Below, piece by piece: positions 1 to 11,925 of a stretch of DNA of 11,925 nt. Every line of letters starts with the position of its first letter. Positions within the stretch are counted from its first letter, which is position 1. Under the pieces are notes generated by a model, which saw only the letters and a list, made by a program, of their open reading frames with translations, did not search any database and was not told where the DNA came from. The stretch is from a virus. Lineage: Duplodnaviria > Heunggongvirae > Uroviricota > Caudoviricetes. Position numbers and translations under genes: made by a program. The stretch lies in the IMG/VR virus record IMGVR_UViG_2778261461_000004; one strand, given 5' to 3'.

Positions 1-1284
1 TTACAGACTTCTGGAAGGTTGCGCAGCTCTTACAACACGCGGTTGATCTTCCGCAGCGTCTTCCAGCGCACTTAAATCACGGTCTTTCACCTCTGGCATT
101 TTCAGCGCAGAGATTAAACCAATCACTGAATATGCCATGATCATAATGGCGATCGGATACCAGGATTCCGTCATGGTGCAGAAAATACCCGCCAGGATAG
201 GACCAAAACCGGAAGCGATAAGACCACCAATTTCTTTAGAAATAGCCATCCGGGTAAAGCGGTTTTTACAGCCGAACATTTCTGCCATGGTAATGTTTTC
301 CAGAGCAAATAATCCCAGCACCGCACAGTTATGAATCACAATCAGTGCAACCATAATGGTGCTCGGGGCATAGCTTTTATCTACAATGATAGAAAGCATT
401 GGCCATGCCAGCACAATCGCGGAGGTATTCATAATAATATACGGGATCCGGCGACCAATTTTATCGGATAACCAACCAAGGAACGGAATGGTCATAAAGC
501 CGAGAATCGAACTGATCATCAATGCATCTGTTGGAATTGCTTTGTTAAACAATAACGTCTGCACTAAATAGCCTGCAAGGAAAGTCTGAATTAACCCGGA
601 GTTACCCGCCTGACCAAAACGCAGCCCTGTTGCCAGCCAGAAGGATTTGCTCTGGAACATGCTACCAGCAGGTGCAGGTTTTGCTGTCGGTTGGTTACTG
701 TCGTTAACCTTCTCAAAGACCGGGCTTTCTTTCAGATTCATACGCAACCAGATAGCAAAGACCATCACGACAACGCTCGCCAGGAACGGTATACGCCATC
801 CCCACGCCAGCAGTTCCTCTTTACTGAGAATGAAGAACATAAAGGCCCAGATTGCCGTTGCGCTCAAGGTTCCGCAGTTAGTTCCCATAGCCACAAATGA
901 GGAGATAATTCCGCGCTTACCTTTTGGCGCATATTCCGCCAGCATCGTACCGGCACCGGAAATTTCCGCACCTGCACCCAACCCCTGAATAATACGCAAC
1001 GTCACCAGCAAGATGGGTGCAAAAACACCAATCTGTGCATAGGTCGGTAACACACCAATTAAGGTGGTACAGATCCCCATCATGGTGATGGTAATAAAGA
1101 GCACTTTTTTACGCCCTATTCTGTCGCCCATTTTGCCGAAAATAAATGCTCCGACAATACGCGCCACATAACCTGCACCGTAGGTTCCCATTGCCAGAAT
1201 TAACGCCATTGCCGTTGATGATTCAGGAAAAAATATTTCATGAAACACTAACGCTGCGCCGAGCGAATATAACTGGAAATCCAT
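1..1284 (-). CDS. ydfJ: MFS transporter of the metabolite:H+ symporter (MHS) family, YdfJ-like; N-terminus appears truncated at the prophage junction
   Basis: 427-aa ORF with multiple hydrophobic segments and the MHS-type motif GDRIGRKK after the second helix. The ORF begins MDFQLYSLGAALVFHEIFFP, which corresponds to the conserved W-Y-D-F region that in paralogs such as ShiA sits about 30 residues into the protein, so the first part of TM1 seems missing. Stop codon is at 1..3. Confidence 0.85.
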   Translation of the reverse strand: MDFQLYSLGAALVFHEIFFPESSTAMALILAMGTYGAGYVARIVGAFIFGKMGDRIGRKKVLFITITMMGICTTLIGVLPTYAQIGVFAPILLVTLRIIQGLGAGAEISGAGTMLAEYAPKGKRGIISSFVAMGTNCGTLSATAIWAFMFFILSKEELLAWGWRIPFLASVVVMVFAIWLRMNLKESPVFEKVNDSNQPTAKPAPAGSMFQSKSFWLATGLRFGQAGNSGLIQTFLAGYLVQTLLFNKAIPTDALMISSILGFMTIPFLGWLSDKIGRRIPYIIMNTSAIVLAWPMLSIIVDKSYAPSTIMVALIVIHNCAVLGLFALENITMAEMFGCKNRFTRMAISKEIGGLIASGFGPILAGIFCTMTESWYPIAIMIMAYSVIGLISALKMPEVKDRDLSALEDAAEDQPRVVRAAQPSRSL

Positions 1285-1887
1285 AATTCACAGGTGTTTT
1301 TTCCCATCCTGTGGTTTCCTTGGCGTTTTCTAGGTTTTTTCAGATAGTTGCATTTTTTAAAAAGCATCCTAAGTTCGATCTCAGTGTCTATCTGGGGCCT
1401 ATTTCTGTCCCATATATGCCCCAAAAAAACTCCCCAACAGATAAGTAGTTTTTTCATGGATTTATGCGTAAAATCAAGAACGGCTGGAAATCATTCAATA
1501 CTCACACTATCGAAAAATTTACCAGCCAACCGCAGCACGTTCTTGCATAAGGCGTGTCTGCGTTTTTTCAACTATTCAGATACATCACTCCCATCACAGT
1601 CATTCCTCCGCATCAAAGGCATATAGGCTATATCACCTTGATATTTTTCTTTTTCAGATAAAAACTGTTATCTATGTATACTTTTAAACCCAATCCGTGT
1701 AGAGTCTCTGCATAAGATAGTTTGCAGTTGCCGCTTCAGCTTGCGCCATAAACCGCCTGATTTTTGCTGCCACCTGCTAGCATTCCTGTATACCTGAAAC
1801 GACAATGTTTATCTACGAACTTTAAAAACACCCAAGATAAAAATTGTCAACTATATCATATATAACACATTACTAATTCGAGGCTAT

Positions 1888-2001
1888 ATGAACAGCATAC
1901 TGATAATCACTTCTCTCCTTATCATATTCAGCATTTTTAGTCATGCCCTAATAAAATTAGGGATTGGCATATCCAATAACCCAGACAAAACCGATGTATA
2001 A
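1888..2001 (+). CDS. Hypothetical 37-aa small hydrophobic protein ([37 protein letters not shown])
   Basis: ATG at 1888 preceded by GAGG (cgaggctatATG), TAA at 1999..2001. One predicted transmembrane helix followed by a polar tail. Too short for the supplied ORF track. It ends 68 nt upstream of ydfK. No homology evidence available. Confidence 0.25.
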
Positions 2002-2069
2002 GTCAACATATCCTGAATCAGACATACAATATCGCAATGAAAATCAATAATATTTTAAGGAATATCTTC

Positions 2070-2303
2070 ATGAAATCAAAAGACACCCTAAAGTGGTTCC
2101 CTGCGCAGCTTCCTGAAGTAAGAATTATCCTAGGGGATGCTGTAGTGGAAGTAGCAAAACAGGGAAGACCTATTAATACCAGAACATTGCTTGATTACAT
2201 TGAAGGAAACATAAAGAAAAAATCATGGCTGGATAACAAAGAATTATTACAAACAGCGATATCAGTTCTTAAAGACAACCAAAATTTAAATGGTAAAATG
2301 TAA
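2070..2303 (+). CDS. ydfK: Cold-shock-induced small protein YdfK/YnaE family
   Basis: Translation MKSKDTLKWFPAQLPEVRIILGDAVVEVAKQGRPINTRTLLDYIEGNIKKKSWLDNKELLQTAISVLKDNQNLNGKM matches my recollection of YdfK (77 aa). AAGGAA lies 8 nt upstream of the ATG at 2070. The track's 2037 start has no comparable RBS. Confidence 0.8.
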   Translation: MKSKDTLKWFPAQLPEVRIILGDAVVEVAKQGRPINTRTLLDYIEGNIKKKSWLDNKELLQTAISVLKDNQNLNGKM

Positions 2304-2620
2304 TATAATAAACTTACTTTTTTATCATTTTTCCACTTTAACAACATTTTGCTCCACTTTTCCACGTCCAAACAACTTGAAATCTGGTTAAAATAACACG
2401 CAACACTATTCTTCTTCCTTGAGCCCGCCCGGAACTCGAAAAACAAACCAAGTTAAAGCCATTTTTCACAAAATCGATTTTGGGTCTCACCAAAAATTAC
2501 GGGGTTGCATACGCATTCGTTTATTTTCGAACGTGTACATACAAATATGCACAAAAATAATCATAATTATTTTCTGAGATGCATTATGATATGAACACCA
2601 ATTTCGAATAGAGTCTCACT

Positions 2621-3211
2621 ATGTCTCGAATTTTTGCTTACTGTCGGATATCAACGCTGGATCAGACCACCGAAAATCAACGCCGGGAAATCGAAAGTGC
2701 AGGTTTTAAAATCAAACCTCAGCAAATAATCGAAGAACACATTAGCGGCTCAGCAGCAACCAGTGAGCGTCCTGGTTTTAACCGGTTGCTTGCTCGCCTG
2801 AAATGTGGTGATCAATTGATTGTGACAAAACTGGATCGCCTTGGTTGTAATGCAATGGATATCAGGAAAACAGTGGAACAACTGACCGAAACAGGTATCA
2901 GAGTGCATTGCTTAGCATTGGGTGGCATTGACCTGACCAGTCCAACAGGAAAAATGATGATGCAAGTAATTTCAGCAGTCGCTGAATTTGAACGAGACCT
3001 TTTACTTGAACGCACTCATTCCGGGATAGTAAGAGCCCGCGGCGCAGGGAAACGTTTTGGTCGACCACCTGTGTTAAATGAAGAACAGAAACAGGTGGTA
3101 TTCGAACGAATTAAGTCAGGTGTAAGTATAAGTGCCATTGCCCGGGAATTCAAAACCTCGCGGCAAACCATTTTAAGAGCCAAAGCAAAACTTCAGACAC
3201 CTGACATATAA
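2621..3211 (+). CDS. pinQ: Site-specific DNA invertase, serine recombinase (Pin/Gin/Hin/Cin family)
   Basis: 196-aa ORF with the resolvase N-terminal catalytic motif ([15 protein letters not shown], catalytic Ser in CRIST) and a C-terminal HTH ([22 protein letters not shown]). Size and position next to a tail-fibre assembly gene match Pin-type invertases. Confidence 0.9.
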
Positions 3212-3308
3212 AAAATAATCTCGGTGTGAGATGCTTTACGTGTTCCAAGCCCCCTTCCTTGCCGTAAATGGAAAGATACATCTAATTATAGAATTTATAT
3301 GTTTTACC

Positions 3309-3745
3309 CTACGGCAGTGCTGGCCATTCAATATCCTGTGCAGTTGACGTATCAACACGGTTCAGCAATACCCGATACTTTTTCCATGCTTCCAGCAACG
3401 AGATTTCTTCCTCCGTTGCAATTTCCAGATCTGCAGCATCCTGAAGCGGCGCAATATGCTCACTGGCTACCTGCATCAGGTTGTTTTTTGTTTCTTCCGC
3501 CTCCCGGATCCGGAACAGTTTTTCTGCTTCCGTATCCTTCACCCAGGCTGTGCCGTTCCACTTCTGAAACTCCCCTTCCGGCGATAACCAGGTAACATTT
3601 TCCGGTAACGGACCGAGTTCAGAAATAAATAACGCGTCGCCGGAAGCCACGTCATAGACGGTTTTTCCCCGATGATCTTCAACGAGATGCCACGATGCCT
3701 CATCACTGTTGAAAACAGCCACGAAGCCTGCCGGAATATCTGGCG
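3309..3745 (-). pseudogene. tfaQ: Tail fibre assembly protein (Tfa) remnant, 5'-truncated
   Basis: Translation from [35 protein letters not shown] to DIEWPALP matches the C-terminal roughly 140 residues of lambda-type Tfa proteins. The N-terminal ~55 residues are absent and in-frame stop codons lie immediately upstream. No ATG is available; the track's start is a GTG at 3722 that corresponds to an internal Val of intact Tfa. Confidence 0.8.
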
Positions 3746-5086
3746 GTGCAATACCCAGTCTGATTCTGTCGCCGCTCCACCACGAATCTGAATTTTCCAG
3801 GCCTCAGCCTCCTTAACAGGGTCAATCCACGGCATCACTGGTCCGGAATACACCGCGGTATACAGTGAAGAACGGTCAAGATCGCGGGGTAACCTGATAA
3901 CACCGGATGCCACAGCCTGTTTCAGCCATGCACGATACATCGGGCGGGTTACGGCACCAATAAACCAGTCCTGCAGGATCAGGTAGCCATCAGTAGACTC
4001 AACCAGTTCCTGACGCTGGGCGCTGTAAGTGCCGTTATAGTTTCGTGCCGTACTGGAAAAACTCAGACGACTGCCCGCCGCCACGGCACGCAACTGACCA
4101 TTACGAAAAGTTTCAAGGTTAGGATTGGGACGATCCGACTTCACCATTCCGATTTCTTCGCCGGGTTTCAGATCGTCGTAAATAATGCCTGGCTGAATGG
4201 TAAGCTCGCGTTCATTCTCCTTGCTGTCATTACCATCCGTTTCATAGCTCTGTCCGTCGCCTTTCCGGATGTACATCCCCAGAGCAGCGGCGATCCTTGC
4301 TGCAGTCAGCTCAGAATCTTCATACTCTTTCAGGGCGCTGAGGCGGATCAGCACACCGGACAATAAAGACGTCCCGCGCATCTGGTGCAGACGGCGAACA
4401 AATTTAAGATGCAGCATTCGCTCTGCATCCACTTCTTTGGTTTCCATCTGCCGTCCGGATACAGGACGACTTTTATACACCAGATATTTTTCGGGACGCC
4501 CCCAGTCATCAACAAACACGCCCTGATTCAGCCTGTTGCTCTCATCACTGGTCATGGGAATAAAGTCCGGCTCGAGCGCCTCCAGCCAGAAATGAACACC
4601 GGCAGAAGGCGTCAGGCTGTTTATGCGCCCGGAAACCATCTGGGCAAACACCTCACCATCGCGCAGCCAGGTACGCAGCATCAGACGTTCCAGCATCGGA
4701 CGGGTAAACTGCCCGGTGACTTCCGGACTGACAGACCATTCACTCCATCGGGTGCGTATCTCCGCTGCCAGGTCACGGGCAATGGCACCATTGCGTAATA
4801 CCGGATGTGGCTCGACAATAATCCCGTTTTTCCCCACCACCCGTTCTTCCAGCTTGTCAAATACACCAATGACCAGATCGTGGTTGTTATCAAGGTAACG
4901 GGCCTGCTCACGTAACGACACGGCCCCGTACTGGCTTAACTGGTCGGCAGTTCGGTTCTCCCGTCGGGCTTTGTGTGTCCGCGTCGTTTTTACGGCCTCA
5001 TAAGCCTGGATCACCGCTCGGGAACGCAGCCTTGCCGCTTTCCATCCTGGTGAAAAAACGCCAATCACATCATCAAGAATTGCCAT
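3746..5086 (-). pseudogene. Phage portal protein (lambda gpB-like family), 3'-truncated and read through into out-of-frame tfa sequence
   Basis: The track ORF 3539..5158 contains a portal-like sequence from MAILDDVIGVFSPGWKAARLRSRAVIQAYEAVK onward, with the ATG at 5084..5086 overlapping the gpW-like stop (TGATG). About 447 codons are portal-native, against roughly 500-540 for intact homologs. The last ~70 codons of the track ORF are tfa DNA read in another frame. Confidence 0.7.
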
Positions 5087-5298
5087 CAGAACCTCGCCAG
5101 CCGGTACCCGGGATGCCCCCGTCGTCGTGTAATCAGAGCCGCAAGGCGGCGCTCCCACTCCTGCCGCCCCTGCCGGATCTCAGATAAGTTTTCCATGGTC
5201 ATCTGCTGACCATTAAAAGTGACGGATTTTCCGTCCAGCACCGCCATTTCAGCTTCCGTATAACGCTGAATCATGGCTTCAATATCATTCTGATTCAT
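5086..5298 (-). CDS. Head-tail joining / head completion protein, gpW-like
   Basis: 70-aa protein (MNQNDIEAMIQRYTEAEMAVLDGKSVTFNGQQMTMENLSEIRQGRQEWERRLAALITRRRGHPGYRLARF) between terminase large subunit and portal, as in lambda A-W-B order. The C-terminal RRRG.PG motif resembles lambda gpW. The ATG at 5298 overlaps the TerL stop as ATGA, with GGAGG 6 nt upstream. Confidence 0.6.
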   Translation of the reverse strand: MNQNDIEAMIQRYTEAEMAVLDGKSVTFNGQQMTMENLSEIRQGRQEWERRLAALITRRRGHPGYRLARF

Positions 5299-7397
5299 AA
5301 CCATCCTCCGGAAGTCAGCCAGGGGTTAACATCGTCAGTTACTGTTTTCTTCCGTTTTTGTTTTTTAACAGGCGTGGATACCGGTTCCGGTGTGGGTGAC
5401 GGTTCGGTGCTGTCCGGGACACACTCCAGCCAGGTTTCCCGGCTCGCCCACTCCGGTGCATCCGGCCAGCGGATCTTTTCGTATCCATGCAGAATGACCA
5501 GAGCCTCGGCATACACCATCAGGTCAAAAGCTTCGTTGGCACCGCGACCCGGCTTACTCCATTTCCCGTCACTGCTCCGCTCTTCATACGTCAGTTCGTC
5601 GTAAAACCAGCTCCCCAGCCAGTCAGGGAAATGCACATAGCCGGGACCTGGCGAGTCACGCCATAACGCGTTATTCACCCGGTCTTTCAGGGCATCCGTC
5701 TGAAGAAGCCAGAGCGGTACATCACCTGCGGCCTGCGCCCGTCGGCCCGTTCGTCCGGTGTTATCAGGGAATGTACGGGTGATCAGTTTTGCGCGCCGGA
5801 TGCTGTCGCCCTTAAACAGGTAAATACGTTTACCAAGGCCATCACGACGGCAACGACGCCAGAATTTATAGGCATTATCAGTGACCCCGTCTTCACCGCC
5901 GGAGTCCACCGCCATTGCCATCAGTCGTATTTGTTGAGAAGGATCGGAGGCCAGCGGCCAGCTTTTATGAAAAACATCCGTCAGCAGGACATCCCAGTCT
6001 TCCGGATAGCTGGCCGGATCAATTCGCTGGCTCTCCCCGTCGCTGTCACCGCGCAATGACTGCGTGATGTTGTAACGATCAATAATCCAGCGTTCGCCAC
6101 GGCTGCCATAGCCCGTTACCTGAACCACAAAACGGCGATGACGTCCCGCCTGCACATCCACTGTCGCCACAAGGAAATTAACGCCATCCGGCACACTGCG
6201 GGAAGGAACTGGCTCTGCCCGCTGCTCAAGCAGTTCACTTTTTCGTTGCTCCATGCTGGCGCGGGGAAGATAAGGTAATCCCCAGTCGGTATTGATAACC
6301 GTCTTGAGTGTTTCTTCACTTCCGGTTGTCTCGTATTCCTGTTCTGCAGTAAGCAGTTTGTAAACGAGTTGCGAGAGTGTCTGGTAAGCAGCTGCCGGAC
6401 CCTCCATCCAGAATGACGCAATACGTGAACGCCTGGGATCACCATAACGACTGCCATCCGCATTGATGGATTCACCATCCCGCAACCAGACCCCACGTCC
6501 GTTCAGCTCACGTTTTTGTTCAGGCATAATCCGTCCTGAACAGAAAGGACACTGAATATAAGCCGCCTCACTTGCCAGCACGGGATCGGCAATATCACGG
6601 AAACCAGCAACCACATCGCCGCAGGGCTGAAAATACTCACCACAGTGTGGACATGGCCAGTACCAGCGACGGCGATCACCACGGTTATAGAGCGACAGGA
6701 TCCCCGTGGTTGGTGGAGCCTCATGCGGTGAAGTCCGTCGCCATTTCACATCCTTCACATCCCTGCCGGGGGAACTCTCCACCAGCGTCATACCGCTGGA
6801 CATAAATGTGGTGGTACGTTTTGAGGCAAGAGAGAAGGCATCCCCCTCGCCATCAATATCTTCCGGAAAACGGTCATAATCCGTCAGCGCGACGCATTTA
6901 TAATCTGATGAGGACATGATATTGACTGACGGCCAGCCGATTTTCAGGTAGTTGCCAGCAAGGAATGTTCTGTCATAAACGTTGTTGTCATTTTTGTTCG
7001 GACTCAGGCGACTGACCACTTCCGGGCTGACGCGAAACGTTCTGGCGAGTCGTTTTTTGGAGTGTTCGCGGGCTTTTTCCTCTGTCATCTGAATGATCAG
7101 CATATCCGCAGGATCGCAAATCACGTTGTAAATCACCCAGCCGTCAATCAGGCCGATAGTCTTGCCGGTTCGTGCCGGGCCAACAAATATCACTGCGTCG
7201 TATTCACGCGAGGCCAGGCAGTTCATAGGCTCAATAACATACGGTGCCACCAGCGGATCCCACGGGACTGAGTTCCCTGCCCCCATGGGCACCCGCATAT
7301 ACTGAGCAACGGCATCAGCAACCCGCATTCGTCTCGGTGCGCGAAGGATATAACCTGAATCGGTTCGTGCTGCCTTTGCGGTTTCCTGATTCAGCAT
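5295..7397 (-). CDS. Terminase large subunit (lambda gpA family)
   Basis: 700-aa ORF with a Walker A-like motif VGPARTGKT near the N-terminus, directly downstream of a Nu1-like small subunit. Strong RBS GGAGGAG upstream. The start overlaps the TerS stop (TAATG). Confidence 0.9.
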   Translation of the reverse strand: MLNQETAKAARTDSGYILRAPRRMRVADAVAQYMRVPMGAGNSVPWDPLVAPYVIEPMNCLASREYDAVIFVGPARTGKTIGLIDGWVIYNVICDPADMLIIQMTEEKAREHSKKRLARTFRVSPEVVSRLSPNKNDNNVYDRTFLAGNYLKIGWPSVNIMSSSDYKCVALTDYDRFPEDIDGEGDAFSLASKRTTTFMSSGMTLVESSPGRDVKDVKWRRTSPHEAPPTTGILSLYNRGDRRRWYWPCPHCGEYFQPCGDVVAGFRDIADPVLASEAAYIQCPFCSGRIMPEQKRELNGRGVWLRDGESINADGSRYGDPRRSRIASFWMEGPAAAYQTLSQLVYKLLTAEQEYETTGSEETLKTVINTDWGLPYLPRASMEQRKSELLEQRAEPVPSRSVPDGVNFLVATVDVQAGRHRRFVVQVTGYGSRGERWIIDRYNITQSLRGDSDGESQRIDPASYPEDWDVLLTDVFHKSWPLASDPSQQIRLMAMAVDSGGEDGVTDNAYKFWRRCRRDGLGKRIYLFKGDSIRRAKLITRTFPDNTGRTGRRAQAAGDVPLWLLQTDALKDRVNNALWRDSPGPGYVHFPDWLGSWFYDELTYEERSSDGKWSKPGRGANEAFDLMVYAEALVILHGYEKIRWPDAPEWASRETWLECVPDSTEPSPTPEPVSTPVKKQKRKKTVTDDVNPWLTSGGWL

Positions 7398-7891
7398 TAC
7401 TCCTCCTGCTGTAATTCCTCCTCATCATCCGCACCTGCTTCAGTCACCCGCAGGGCTATCTGATCGCGCAGATCATCAATAATGGACTGAACACGGCTCA
7501 CAGCGGCAGGCTGCAGACCGCAGTCACGTTCAAGAATATCCGGTAATGTCTCCAGCACCTGCACGACCGCTTTTGCCCAGATGGCAAACTCCCGTCTGAC
7601 ATCACTGGCCGGAATGAGTTGTGCCGTTTCCTGTTCGAACTTAAGACGCTCACGTTCAGACTGATACCAGGCTTTGCGCTCATGCGCGTCCATTTCGCCT
7701 TCTGCAACCGGCGGTGGTAATGCCAGAAATGCCGACACAATATCAACCACCCGATAAAGCTTGAGGTTGCTTTCATGCCCCCCTGCAACGGGTAGATTTT
7801 GCAGCCTTGCCGCAGCAGTCTGGCGATGTACACCTGACAATGCCGCCAGTTGACTGATATTCAGCGTCAGATTTTTTAACTCTCGATCCAT
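7397..7891 (-). CDS. nohA: Terminase small subunit, Nu1-like (NohA/NohD family)
   Basis: 164-aa ORF. The N-terminus NLTLNISQLAALSGVHRQTAAARL is HTH-like, as in Nu1-type DNA-binding small subunits. The C-terminus is acidic (EAGADDEEELQQEE). It sits about 180 bp downstream of the cos-like sequence, with GGAG upstream of the ATG. Confidence 0.8.
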   Translation of the reverse strand: MDRELKNLTLNISQLAALSGVHRQTAAARLQNLPVAGGHESNLKLYRVVDIVSAFLALPPPVAEGEMDAHERKAWYQSERERLKFEQETAQLIPASDVRREFAIWAKAVVQVLETLPDILERDCGLQPAAVSRVQSIIDDLRDQIALRVTEAGADDEEELQQEE

Positions 7892-8039
7892 ACCCGCTCC
7901 AGAATGTTTTAAACATGCATCTTGCGAACAACTTTAGGCAAACGGTGTTAGCGATGAACAAAAAACAATCAGAATCGACACCATAAAAATAAAACCACTG
8001 TAATACCAATCAATTACAGTAGTGGTGATGACGAATAAA

Positions 8040-8112
8040 ATTTCAAAAACTAGCCTTTTTCCGCGACGCTCCCGCCCCGTGGCAGGGACCCCCACTGGGA
8101 GGACCCGACAGC
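8040..8112 (-). other. Candidate cos site (cosN-like core about 8061..8082, with adjacent cosB-like sequence toward terS)
   Basis: Read on the minus strand the sequence is CCACGGGGCGGGAGCGTCGCGGAAAAAGGC...GAAATTTTATTCGTCAT. This resembles, from memory, lambda cosN (GGGCGGCGACCTCGCGGG) and the downstream GAAAATTTT and TTCGTCAT elements. Position relative to the terS start is about the same as cosN to Nu1 in lambda (~190 bp). Confidence 0.5.
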
Positions 8113-8443
8113 CTGACAACCGTGACGAGCATCTGAAACAGAGCTTTACATAATGGCATGGGGATAATTCAGAAGGACATCACAGCATGCCCACACAAAT
8201 TAGTGTGAGTGTCCTGTTTCTTACTACGCGCAGGACTGACGAGCATGAGGGGAAAATACGCGAACCGAAATGCCTTATCTTCAGAAATGCAGCCGGCATC
8301 CGAACTGGACGATATTGTAAATTCACCTAAATACGAGGCATTGCTGTAGTTGAATTGCAGTACTGTATTAGCCTTACAGTGACAGAATACGATATTGACT
8401 CTGTCACTTGTGAAATGGTCAGAATGGTTAGCAGTTATGGTGA

Positions 8444-8650
8444 TCAGTCAACCACCAGGGAATAATCCTTCGTATTCTTATCGTGCTTTACTAACGCGGC
8501 CTCAATTGCCCTGAATGCTTCCAGAGATACTTGATGTTCTATACATGCAATTACAACATCCGGGTAACCCATCGAAATGGTGCTATTAAGCATAGTTTTT
8601 ACACGAACCTGCTCCTGGGAGGGGGCATCAGTGTATTGATCTTTATGCAT
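8444..8650 (-). CDS. Hypothetical 68-aa prophage protein, possibly DUF3950 (YlcI/YnfO-like) family
   Basis: [71 protein letters not shown] with GGAG 7 nt upstream of the ATG. Family assignment is from recollection only and is uncertain. Confidence 0.55.
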
Positions 8651-8857
8651 TTTGTCGCTCCATTCGTTTGCTCTTCACTTGCGGCCAAAAATATAACGTC
8701 AAATCACTCAGCATGAAAGAGTGAAAGTTTCAGCGCGTTTCCCTTACATAATCTGTCGTTTGTATTCTCTTCAGGCATACCGGAAAGACTAGGTATTGTC
8801 ACATAACCAATACCATCGACAATCGAGATTTATATCTATTCGGTAATGTTTAAATAT

Positions 8858-8880
8858 AAAAAAACCCCGTAAAAACGAGG
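8858..8880 (-). terminator. Rho-independent terminator downstream of gnsB
   Basis: On the minus strand: stem CCUCGU / ACGGGG (with one G-U pair), a short U-rich loop, then a run of 7 U. Located 65-90 nt downstream of the gnsB stop. Confidence 0.55.
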
Positions 8881-8945
8881 TTTATGGGTAATTTGTATTG
8901 TTGAATAGCATCTGATGAGAAATTGATGCTAATACTATAAACATG

Positions 8946-9119
8946 CTAGATTAAATCAATCTTGATATCATAGCTTTCAAGACCAGTCATTTTTTCCCGT
9001 GCAGTAAACTGGATACTGGTAACTTCTTTCCCGGTCTTTTTCTTAAGCTCAATGATTTTTTTTGTTATATATTCAGAAATATCTGCTTCTGTTTTTGTTT
9101 TTAACTCTTCAATGTTCAT
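8946..9119 (-). CDS. gnsB: Gns family protein (GnsA/GnsB)
   Basis: 57-aa translation MNIEELKTKTEADISEYITKKIIELKKKTGKEVTSIQFTAREKMTGLESYDIKIDLI matches the Gns family. AAGAGGAA lies upstream of the ATG at 9119 (alternative ATG at 9122). The track's longer 88-aa start at 9212 is not supported by an RBS. Confidence 0.8.
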   Translation of the reverse strand: MNIEELKTKTEADISEYITKKIIELKKKTGKEVTSIQFTAREKMTGLESYDIKIDLI

Positions 9120-9291
9120 CATTTCCTCTTTTAGTCTGTTATGACTGTCCTGGTACACAGTAGTGTCAATTATATGGAGCAAACGTATAAAAGATAAGAT
9201 GAAACATCGCAATAATCAACATACGACGGTCTAAATTTCACACAAACAGATAAAGATGATTATCATTTATTATCAATGCATTAGAATCAAA

Positions 9292-9522
9292 TCAATTCAA
9301 GAGTCTCATTGCTGCTTCCAGAATTTCTTCTGAAGTTACATGTCGATCCGCTGCTACATAAATGACTTTATGATCTCCGGTCAGAGATGGAAACCCTGCG
9401 GCCATTACAGTAAGGTGTGTTTTTTCGCCATTTGGATATTCACGCATGATGGTGTTAACTCCAGTCATCGCTGGCACTACCACTGCTGGTTCAGAGTTAA
9501 AAAAAACTATGATTTTTTTCAT
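9292..9522 (-). CDS. Hypothetical 76-aa protein (possibly YnfN-like, by position)
   Basis: ORF MKKIIVFFNSEPAVVVPAMTGVNTIMREYPNGEKTHLTVMAAGFPSLTGDHKVIYVAADRHVTSEEILEAAMRLLN from the ATG at 9522. The track's extension to 9564 starts at a TTG inside a terminator. Weak RBS. Lies between gnsB and cspI, as ynfN does in K-12 Qin by my recollection. Confidence 0.5.
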   Translation of the reverse strand: MKKIIVFFNSEPAVVVPAMTGVNTIMREYPNGEKTHLTVMAAGFPSLTGDHKVIYVAADRHVTSEEILEAAMRLLN

Positions 9523-9565
9523 GATGTTACCGTAGTATGTGAGTATCCATCGAATAGATACCAAG

Positions 9566-9587
9566 CAAAAAAGCTCCCGAAGGAGCC
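9566..9587 (-). terminator. Rho-independent terminator with UUCG tetraloop
   Basis: On the minus strand: GGCUCC-UUCG-GGAGCU followed by UUUUUU. The plus-strand A-run makes it potentially bidirectional. About 200 nt downstream of the cspI stop. Confidence 0.6.
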
Positions 9588-9793
9588 TTCATTTTCACTT
9601 TTTTAAATCCAACGACAGACGGCTGGCATTTAAGTATTGTGAAATATTATCAAATGTAATCATCATTGATTTACAAAAGATACATTTTGCCCCGAAAGGA
9701 TTCATGTCAGAAACATCAAAAGATGATGTTCTATACTGGGAACCATGACAACACGGGCATCTAAAGTGAATATGGTTTGTAATATTGTCTACC

Positions 9794-10006
9794 TCAAAGC
9801 GCCACTACATGAACAGCGGCAGGACCTTTAGGTCCGTTCTCAATACCAAATTCAACTTCCTGATTCTCAGTTAATGTTTTGAAATCGTTGCTCTGAATTG
9901 CTGAGAAATGGACAAACACATCTTTGCTGCCATCTTTCGGCGTGATGAAACCAAAACCTTTTTCAGGGTTAAACCATTTCACTAAACCAGTCATTTTGTT
10001 AGACAT
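9794..10006 (-). CDS. cspI: Cold shock protein, CspA family
   Basis: 70-aa [73 protein letters not shown] with RNP1-like KGFGFI and RNP2-like VFVHF motifs. AAGG RBS upstream. Followed upstream by a long untranslated region, as is typical of csp genes. Confidence 0.9.
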
Positions 10007-10369
10007 AATTATTACCTTTTGAAGAAATTAGCCCTTGGGCAGAATGGTCCGAAAAAAAATATCAGAGAGAAAAACCAACAAGGAAATCTCAAGAGGTACA
10101 AATAATAAAATTATAACAATGACTGCTTCAGATAAATTTGTAACAAACCAGAACACCATTAACGCATGATTAACCACCCATAGCAAGGATTACTTTTGTA
10201 AAGAAAAACACAGCAATGAAAGAATAGCTTTATTTATTAATAATAACGTGTCATTCTGATTAAGACCTTTTATCTTACCCTTAAGATTTCAGGAATTTTG
10301 GCTCATGGAAGAGTCCTTTTTATTTAAATTTTACATTCCGCGATGTAAATGTTCCGATTTAATATTACC

Positions 10370-11393
<1,024 letters not shown>

Positions 11394-11397
<4 letters not shown>

Positions 11398-11705
11398 AGA
11401 TATTTATGATGAGGACGCTCGTGCTTATTGGCAGGATTTTCAATCTTAAAGGAGTACTGATGCTGCAGATAAGACTCAACTTTTTCTGACAATTTTTCTG
11501 CTACTTCCAGGAAGACTTGCCGGACGCTCATTCTGGCTGCTGCCTCATAAAACTCCAGCGCAGCTCCTTCAACACGGTCCATGGCGACATCCAGGCCAAA
11601 AATTTCACCGTCAAAGCGTTCTTTGTCCTGTAAGGCTACAGTTACCGTAACTTTATTCTCAAAATTACGGACTCCTTTCACAACCAGTTCATAGTCTTGA
11701 GTCAT
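11394..11705 (-). CDS. ydfR: Uncharacterised prophage protein between holin and endolysin (YdfR-like, DUF1327 by recollection)
   Basis: 103-aa ORF with strong RBS GAGGAGAG 7 nt upstream of the ATG. Sits between holin and endolysin genes, as ydfR does in K-12 Qin. Confidence 0.65.
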
Positions 11706-11709
11706 TGGA

Positions 11710-11925
11710 TTACTCTCCTCTCGCAGCCTTACGCCTGTCTTCTTTAATCTTGAAATAAAGATTTGTCAGATACGTCAGCATGCCAAATACCAGACTACCC
11801 AATACACCTATTGCCGCCCACTGTGAGGGCGTGACTTTATCGAGCAACTGTAAAAACCAGTAGCCAGCACTGCCTGCAGAGGTGCTGTAGGCGATGCCCG
11901 TTGTTAACTTATCCATGGATTTCAT
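11710..11925 (-). CDS. essQ: Class II holin, S21-type pinholin, with dual-start motif
   Basis: 71-aa [74 protein letters not shown] with two TM segments and a charged C-terminus. The Met1-Lys-Ser-Met4 start resembles the antiholin/holin dual start of phage 21 S. The ATG is the last three bases of the window, so upstream signals are not visible. Confidence 0.85.

Follow-up and report, generated by a model that had tools for sequence, protein, structure and literature searches.

The 11,925-nt stretch of Caudoviricetes DNA analysed here (IMG/VR record IMGVR_UViG_2778261461_000004), hereafter the window, contains the joint of a large deletion that fused a portal gene without its 3' end to a tail-fibre assembly gene (tfaQ) without its 5' end. 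We consider, with a probability of about 0.9, that a single illegitimate deletion of 18,545 bp in an mEp460-type prophage at the Qin site explains this joint. Both genes are already annotated as pseudogenes by RefSeq/PGAP, and the feature is of a known kind, i.e., ordinary prophage decay. A preliminary description made from the letters alone had proposed such a joint and had suggested that its breakpoints be mapped by BLASTN, that short microhomology be looked for and that the locus be compared across related strains.

The window differed from the chromosome of E. coli C1 (NZ_CP195942.1) at one position in 11,925; this position (8686) is intergenic and lies between the gene for a 68-aa hypothetical protein and gnsB. 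The phage genes of the window are on the minus strand and, read in phage orientation, the C1 annotation begins with essD, ydfR, rrrQ, rzpQ, cspI, ymcF, ynfR, ynfN, and gnsB, continues with a hypothetical gene, a DUF1441 gene, the large terminase gene, a 70-aa W-like gene, the portal pseudogene, and the tfa pseudogene, and ends with pinQ, ydfK, ynfT (opposite strand), and a 5'-truncated ydfJ. The last of these (1..1284, minus strand; "missing N-terminus" in PGAP) was truncated by prophage integration in the same arrangement as in K-12, and its end is the right-hand boundary between prophage and chromosome, where the "cryptic prophage Qin" feature of K-12 starts. The locus is the Qin integration site of K-12, whose placement at ydfJ is supported by Ramisetty & Sudhakari 2019 (PMC6379469). 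In C1, a lambdoid prophage occupies the 5' end of ydfJ beside ynfT, ydfK, and pinQ, in an order identical to that of K-12, and only the arms, not the whole element, are homologous to K-12 Qin.

Four genes around the joint remain intact. The serine recombinase gene pinQ (2621..3211, plus strand; Pfam Resolvase and HTH_7; PGAP WP_000086527.1) was kept on the right side of the deletion, where it is convergent with the tfaQ remnant and 98 bp from it. Upstream of the portal gene lies the 70-aa W-like gene (5086..5298, minus strand; PGAP CDS WP_001072975.1 in C1), whose product had no match in a Pfam search; it stands in the place of lambda W (head-tail joining), and the annotations of mEp460 and Ayreon name it head-tail adaptor/W. 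It is preceded by an intact ORF for a large terminase subunit of gpA type (5295..7397, minus strand; 700 aa; Pfam GpA_ATPase and GpA_nuclease; PGAP) and by the DUF1441 gene (7397..7891, minus strand; Pfam PF07278), which is annotated as the small terminase subunit in mEp460 (gp01).

The portal remnant (3752..5086, minus strand) begins with an ATG at 5086 and comprises 1335 nt, or 445 of 502 codons, the C-terminal 57 codons being gone, as seen in the translation and in PGAP, which lists it as a pseudogene "missing C-terminus" in C1. Its product matched the Pfam family PF05136 (Phage_portal_2) at 276.2 bits against a cut-off of 32.9, with residues 35-372 aligned to positions 3-354 of the 354-position profile, so that it agrees with lambda-family portals in its profile match and falls short of them in length (502 aa in mEp460 and XH988). 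As the preliminary description had noted, the portal coding sequence runs unbroken from 5086 into DNA that encodes Tfa in a different frame. The resulting ORF (5086..3539, minus strand) has 515 codons with its stop at 3541-3539; residues 1-445 are portal (3752-5086), and the translation continues as an out-of-frame tail of 70 codons through tfaQ DNA (3539..3751, minus strand).

This chimeric ORF is probably without function. A Pfam search with the 70-residue tail matched no family, and when the tail was compared with 5.8 billion proteins it retrieved mostly frameshifted tfa products of ~114 aa, along with a few short stf::tfa fragments; no further long fusions came from this search, in which clustering at 90% hides chimeras inside portal clusters. 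The many database proteins of ~114 aa begin with the N-terminus of TfaQ and then pass into an out-of-frame tail identical to that of the chimera, and they stem from a frameshift in tfa, or from homopolymer errors in the sequencing, across a large number of E. coli assemblies. No stop codon interrupts the alternative frame of tfaQ over at least 70 codons.

On the other side of the joint, the tfaQ remnant (3309..3751, minus strand; stop codon at 3311-3309) comprises nt 134-576 of 576, as given by the tfa-frame translation and by PGAP, which lists a pseudogene "missing N-terminus". Its start codon is gone together with the first 133 nt, and it is because this loss amounts to 44 codons plus one base that the frame changes at the joint. 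Read down from 3752, the tfa frame encodes the C-terminal 147 residues of the tail-fibre assembly protein, ending in EWPALP and the stop, and the entire domain of Pfam family PF02413 (Caudo_TAP) is kept (148.3 bits against a cut-off of 22.1). The remnant therefore has the TfaQ profile match without being a complete gene with its own start and N-terminal 44 residues. The preliminary description had placed the first homologous residue around 3745, which is close to its actual position (Ile45, at 3752-3750), and its remark that stops in the tfa frame occur just upstream holds for the codons at 3806-3804, 3815-3813, and 3824-3822.

The joint could be resolved to the base through a complete relative. 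The prophage at the Qin site of strain XH988 (NZ_CP019355.1) has the same locus and gene order, with 99.98% and 99.65% identity to the left and right of the joint, respectively, and BLASTN of the reverse-complemented window against this locus (L010) gave three blocks. Positions 1-3568 of the reverse complement correspond to L010 72-3639 (98.9%), positions 3565-8174 to L010 4897-9506 (99.98%, with 1 mismatch in 4,610 bp), and positions 8173-11925 to L010 28050-31802 (99.65% over 3,753 bp). The first gap between blocks (L010 3640-4896) is an IS3 element upstream of the DUF1441 gene that is present in XH988 and not in the window. The second gap is the deletion itself (L010 9507-28051), whose 18,545 bp agree with the 15-20 kb estimated in the preliminary description. 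This segment, which the XH988 prophage keeps as part of a complete set of head and tail genes, runs from the portal C-terminus to the 5' end of tfaQ. Between the 1509-nt portal gene and the 576-nt tfaQ, XH988 has a ClpP-protease/major-capsid fusion gene, head completion genes, tail genes, the tape measure gene, J, lom, and a 3.4-kb stf. We use XH988 as a structural reference; it is not a proven ancestor.

The two outer BLAST segments overlap by two bases, the dinucleotide TA at 3752..3753 (minus strand), which is common to both parents, as direct reading and alignment also showed. The parental sequences read ...GGGTA/CGTG in portal and ...CGATA/TTGC in tfaQ or, at greater length, ...GACTGGGTA/CGTGCAGG and ...ACCGATA/TTGCACC (the slash marks the joint). 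The joint falls between 3752, the last portal base, and 3751, the first tfaQ base, with the crossover within the 2-bp TA, and the PGAP boundary between the two C1 pseudogenes is at the same base. A natural end of both genes at this point was rejected, as the complete portal gene has 1509 nt (502 aa) in mEp460 and XH988 and the complete tfaQ has 576 nt (191 aa) in XH988 and K-12.

The terminase-portal segment of the window is also represented among complete, free-living infectious phages. mEp460 (NC_019716), phi458, and Ayreon are 98.4-98.8% identical to window positions 3752-7891 (mEp460 98.6%), and mEp460 has small terminase, large terminase, W-like, and portal genes in the same order as the window, with a portal of 502 aa (1509 nt). 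These phages differ from the window in integrase and integration site, and in mEp460 the side tail fibre gene is not followed by an annotated tfa or pin gene.

Both flanks of the joint are collinear with one XH988 prophage at the same chromosomal site, which bears out the reading as a single large deletion joint. We propose that a lambdoid prophage with an mEp460-type packaging/head module inserted into the Qin site at the 5' end of ydfJ and that one RecA-independent illegitimate deletion would then have removed the 18,545 bp, its ends being joined at the 2-bp coincidence TA. Such an event would have taken away the last 57 portal codons, the protease/major-capsid fusion gene, the head-completion genes, all tail genes, J, lom, stf, and the first 133 nt of tfaQ. 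It would have left two pseudogenes, with the portal frame continuing for 70 codons through wrong-frame tfaQ DNA, and a remnant that cannot make virions and is now inherited vertically as a cryptic prophage. RecA independence is suggested because there is no extended homology at the joint: the flanks are collinear with one uninterrupted parent and share few bases (2 bp). The molecular route was probably replication slippage or end-joining at short homology, and the deletion likely occurred in the chromosome rather than before integration. By our own calculation (P(k) = (k+1)(1/4)^k(3/4)^2), however, a 2-bp microhomology is expected at about 1/6 of random joints, so that the joint gives no proof that homology guided the event. 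Portal and tfaQ abut directly, with no IS element at the joint; an IS-mediated adjacent deletion was rejected, the IS elements of the relatives (IS3 in XH988; IS1 and ISKpn26 in TST3) lying elsewhere.

Having established the joint, we compared it with Qin of K-12 MG1655 (b1543-b1579 region), which occupies the same integration site with the same 5'-truncated ydfJ and has also lost head and tail genes internally. Mapping of the arms by BLASTN gave 99.3% identity between the K-12 right arm (tfaQ 3' part, pinQ, ydfK, ynfT) and window positions 3753-1, and 95.0% between the left arm (essQ/essD, ydfR, rrrQ, rzpQ, cspI, ynfN, gnsB) and window positions 11925-8809. The endpoints of the two deletions differ. 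K-12 retains tfaQ in full, along with 725 nt or more of stf, whereas the window has lost the 5' end of tfaQ; the stf sequence of K-12 starts at XH988 position 27195, 855 bp to the left of the window's right end. On the other side, the K-12 sequence stops within the lambda Nu1-type gene nohA (at about nt 529) and, as the preliminary description had noted, it has no large terminase or portal (nor W), nohA abutting stfQ with tfaQ intact. Window positions 8808-3754 (hypothetical gene, DUF1441, large terminase, W-like, and portal) had no K-12 counterpart by BLASTN, and ydfO, ynfO, and nohA of K-12 are absent from the window. The nohA side of K-12 matches strain S1 at 98.7% identity until 17 nt short of the nohA end, and at the Qin site S1 carries a lambda-type module made up of nohA, a gene for a 641-aa large terminase, W, and a portal gene of B type. 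Because nohA belongs to a lambda-type module and the corresponding window segment lacks a K-12 counterpart, the two remnants had different mosaic ancestors, and the comparison supports the view that they decayed independently, from different mosaic variants at one site. The preliminary description had likewise suspected independent decay, within the same prophage lineage; common lineage holds for the integration site and both arms and fails for the head module, which differs. At the Qin site we observed two unrelated packaging and head modules, one with DUF1441, a gpA-type large terminase, and an mEp460-type portal (window, XH988), and the other with nohA and lambda A, W, and B, preceded by ydfO and ynfO (K-12, S1, EC09). 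They begin to differ immediately downstream of gnsB, where the mosaic boundary is found.

The comparison across strains yielded a prophage with complete head and tail genes (XH988) and several deletion alleles at the locus. At least 6 other independent deletion alleles, including that of K-12, were found at the Qin site. In H2, portal nt 1263 is joined to tfaQ nt ~441 with TT shared (2 bp); in S1 (NZ_CP010226.1), nt 633 of a lambda-type portal is joined to tfaQ nt ~135 with TAT shared (3 bp); in EC09, assessed like TST3 from annotation tables, portal nt ~618 is followed by the last 270 nt of tfaQ (tfaQ ~306); in SCU-115, portal is joined in frame to the 3' end of stf; and in DSM 103263, the protease gene is joined to the 3' end of stf. 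These five are internal deletions reaching from within or just after portal to stf or tfaQ, and as in the window they spare pinQ and the lysis/cold-shock arm; their differing endpoints strengthen the case for independent decay. Still more candidate alleles were listed when the S1 joint region was used as the query. Among 189 strains, Qin-site prophages were reported to range from 11 to 97 kb (PMC6379469).

These alleles bear on whether the right end of the deletion was placed at random. The S1 joint (TAT/TGCACC) falls within 1 bp of the window's joint (TA/TTGCACC) in tfaQ, at about 3005-3012 of the S1 locus sequence (L009) as compared with 3751-3753 of the window. On the left the two joints involve different genes, and the positions are not homologous (mEp460-type nt 1335 in the window and lambda-type nt 633 in S1). 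This coincidence is suggestive but weak, and it counts against purely random endpoints; with ~4-8 known endpoints, we estimate that one such near-coincident pair would arise by chance with a probability of ~3-6%. That tfaQ nt ~131-135 (CCGATAT/TGCACC) is a recurrent breakpoint for prophage-inactivating deletions appears very unlikely to us.

We hold it to be very unlikely that the deletion was site-specific or driven by a hotspot, with the right end at tfaQ nt ~131-135 made by a recombinase (such as PinQ at pseudo-sites having a 2-bp core) or at a hotspot for a nuclease or topoisomerase. Serine invertases exchange strands at a 2-bp core, within sites of ~26 bp that consist of two 12-bp half-sites; the 2-bp overlap at the joint resembles such a core, and pinQ is only 98 bp away. 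A hotspot would find its support in the near-coincidence with S1 despite the lambda-type portal on the left there, against which stand that chance probability and the other alleles, whose right ends fall in stf or at different points of tfaQ (nt ~441 in H2 and ~306 in EC09). As for PinQ, the breakpoint flanks, read directly, are unlike half-sites, and neither parental breakpoint showed notable repeats or palindromes. With up to 3 mismatches allowed, neither the window nor the complete late region of XH988 contained the 26-bp Gin/Hin/Pin consensus, and the e14 inverted repeat, the sequence on which PinQ was shown to act (PMC12529663), had no match at the same tolerance in the window or the complete XH988 relative. 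A Pin-mediated deletion was rejected on these grounds, no Gin/Hin/Pin or e14-type site being present in the window or the complete relative.

Instead of a deletion in situ, two prophages could in principle have recombined, or a phage genome could have integrated in an already defective state. The portal/tfa query matches at a median of 2 places per E. coli genome and at up to 10, so that partners for ectopic exchange are available; lambdoid prophages are also mosaic, with K-12, S1, and the window carrying different head modules at one site. Both flanks of the joint, however, align to a single contiguous prophage at the same site with 99.65% identity or more, and an exchange between prophages would rearrange or delete chromosomal DNA, whereas ydfJ, ydfI, ydfZ, rspR, ydfG, and dcp are in their normal order; a phage genome that lacked its head and tail genes could not have been delivered by particles of its own. 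We regard such an origin as highly improbable and retain the in-situ deletion.

The joint is inherited in many assemblies. A 120-bp joint probe was 100% identical in 3 of 5,426 complete E. coli genomes, namely C1 from wastewater in Panama and, from pig processing, TST3 (a carcass in Thailand) and TBE6 (a chopping plate sampled before the entry of pigs), and only one half of the probe matched in the remaining complete genomes. The exact 515-aa chimera was found on 91 contigs and in 119 blocks of NCBI, ENA, and Logan assemblies, with identical neighbour genes in all 24 of the contigs that were read. Its presence in three complete genomes and on 91 contigs establishes that the joint is real and inherited. 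An assembly or sequencing artefact (a chimeric contig), for which nothing speaks beyond the general possibility that attaches to unexpected joints, has a negligible chance and is for practical purposes ruled out by the identical joint in three independently assembled complete genomes and by its recurrence, with the same neighbours, in the assemblies of many other runs.

Besides the joint, TST3 and C1 have in common the protein accessions of the large terminase, YdfI, and Dcp; TST3 additionally carries insertions of IS1 and ISKpn26, the latter inside pinQ. A common joint and common accessions, followed by later IS insertions, argue for vertical descent and then further decay, and the pattern indicates a single event, vertical inheritance, and subsequent decay. 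The terminase and DUF1441 genes are still intact ORFs, and the segment is 1 base in 4,610 away from XH988, which suggests that the deletion is recent relative to sequence divergence. The IS3 of XH988 (L010 3640-4896) and the IS1 of TST3 (L014 5638-6335) each lie between the gene for the 68-aa hypothetical protein and DUF1441. The span 11796-12776 of L014 is also listed for the IS insertions of TST3. Among the relatives, an ISVsa5 further occupies an SDR-family oxidoreductase gene at the position of ydfG in C1. The window is without the IS3, IS1, ISKpn26, and ISVsa5 insertions of its relatives.

Why the deletion alleles seen here spare pinQ may be explained by an anti-phage role of its product, since PinQ is reported to block adsorption of phage T2 and to work in trans on the P segment of e14 (PMC12529663, 2025); as a counterpoint, pinQ of TST3 is interrupted by ISKpn26. 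If the breakpoint in tfaQ were truly recurrent, it would point to a sequence- or structure-specific process of breakage or joining in the tail-fibre region beside pinQ. The joint itself is a handy marker by which its E. coli carrier clade can be traced as a lineage. Taken together, the allelic series at the Qin site (the prophage with complete head and tail genes, the window allele, and at least six other deletions) is of modest value and agrees with the published view that cryptic prophages are disarmed again and again but keep some of their genes (PMC6379469). The window's deletion is of little import alone; it is a cleanly mapped case of a lambdoid prophage turning cryptic, by an 18.5-kb deletion that was followed in TST3 by IS insertions.
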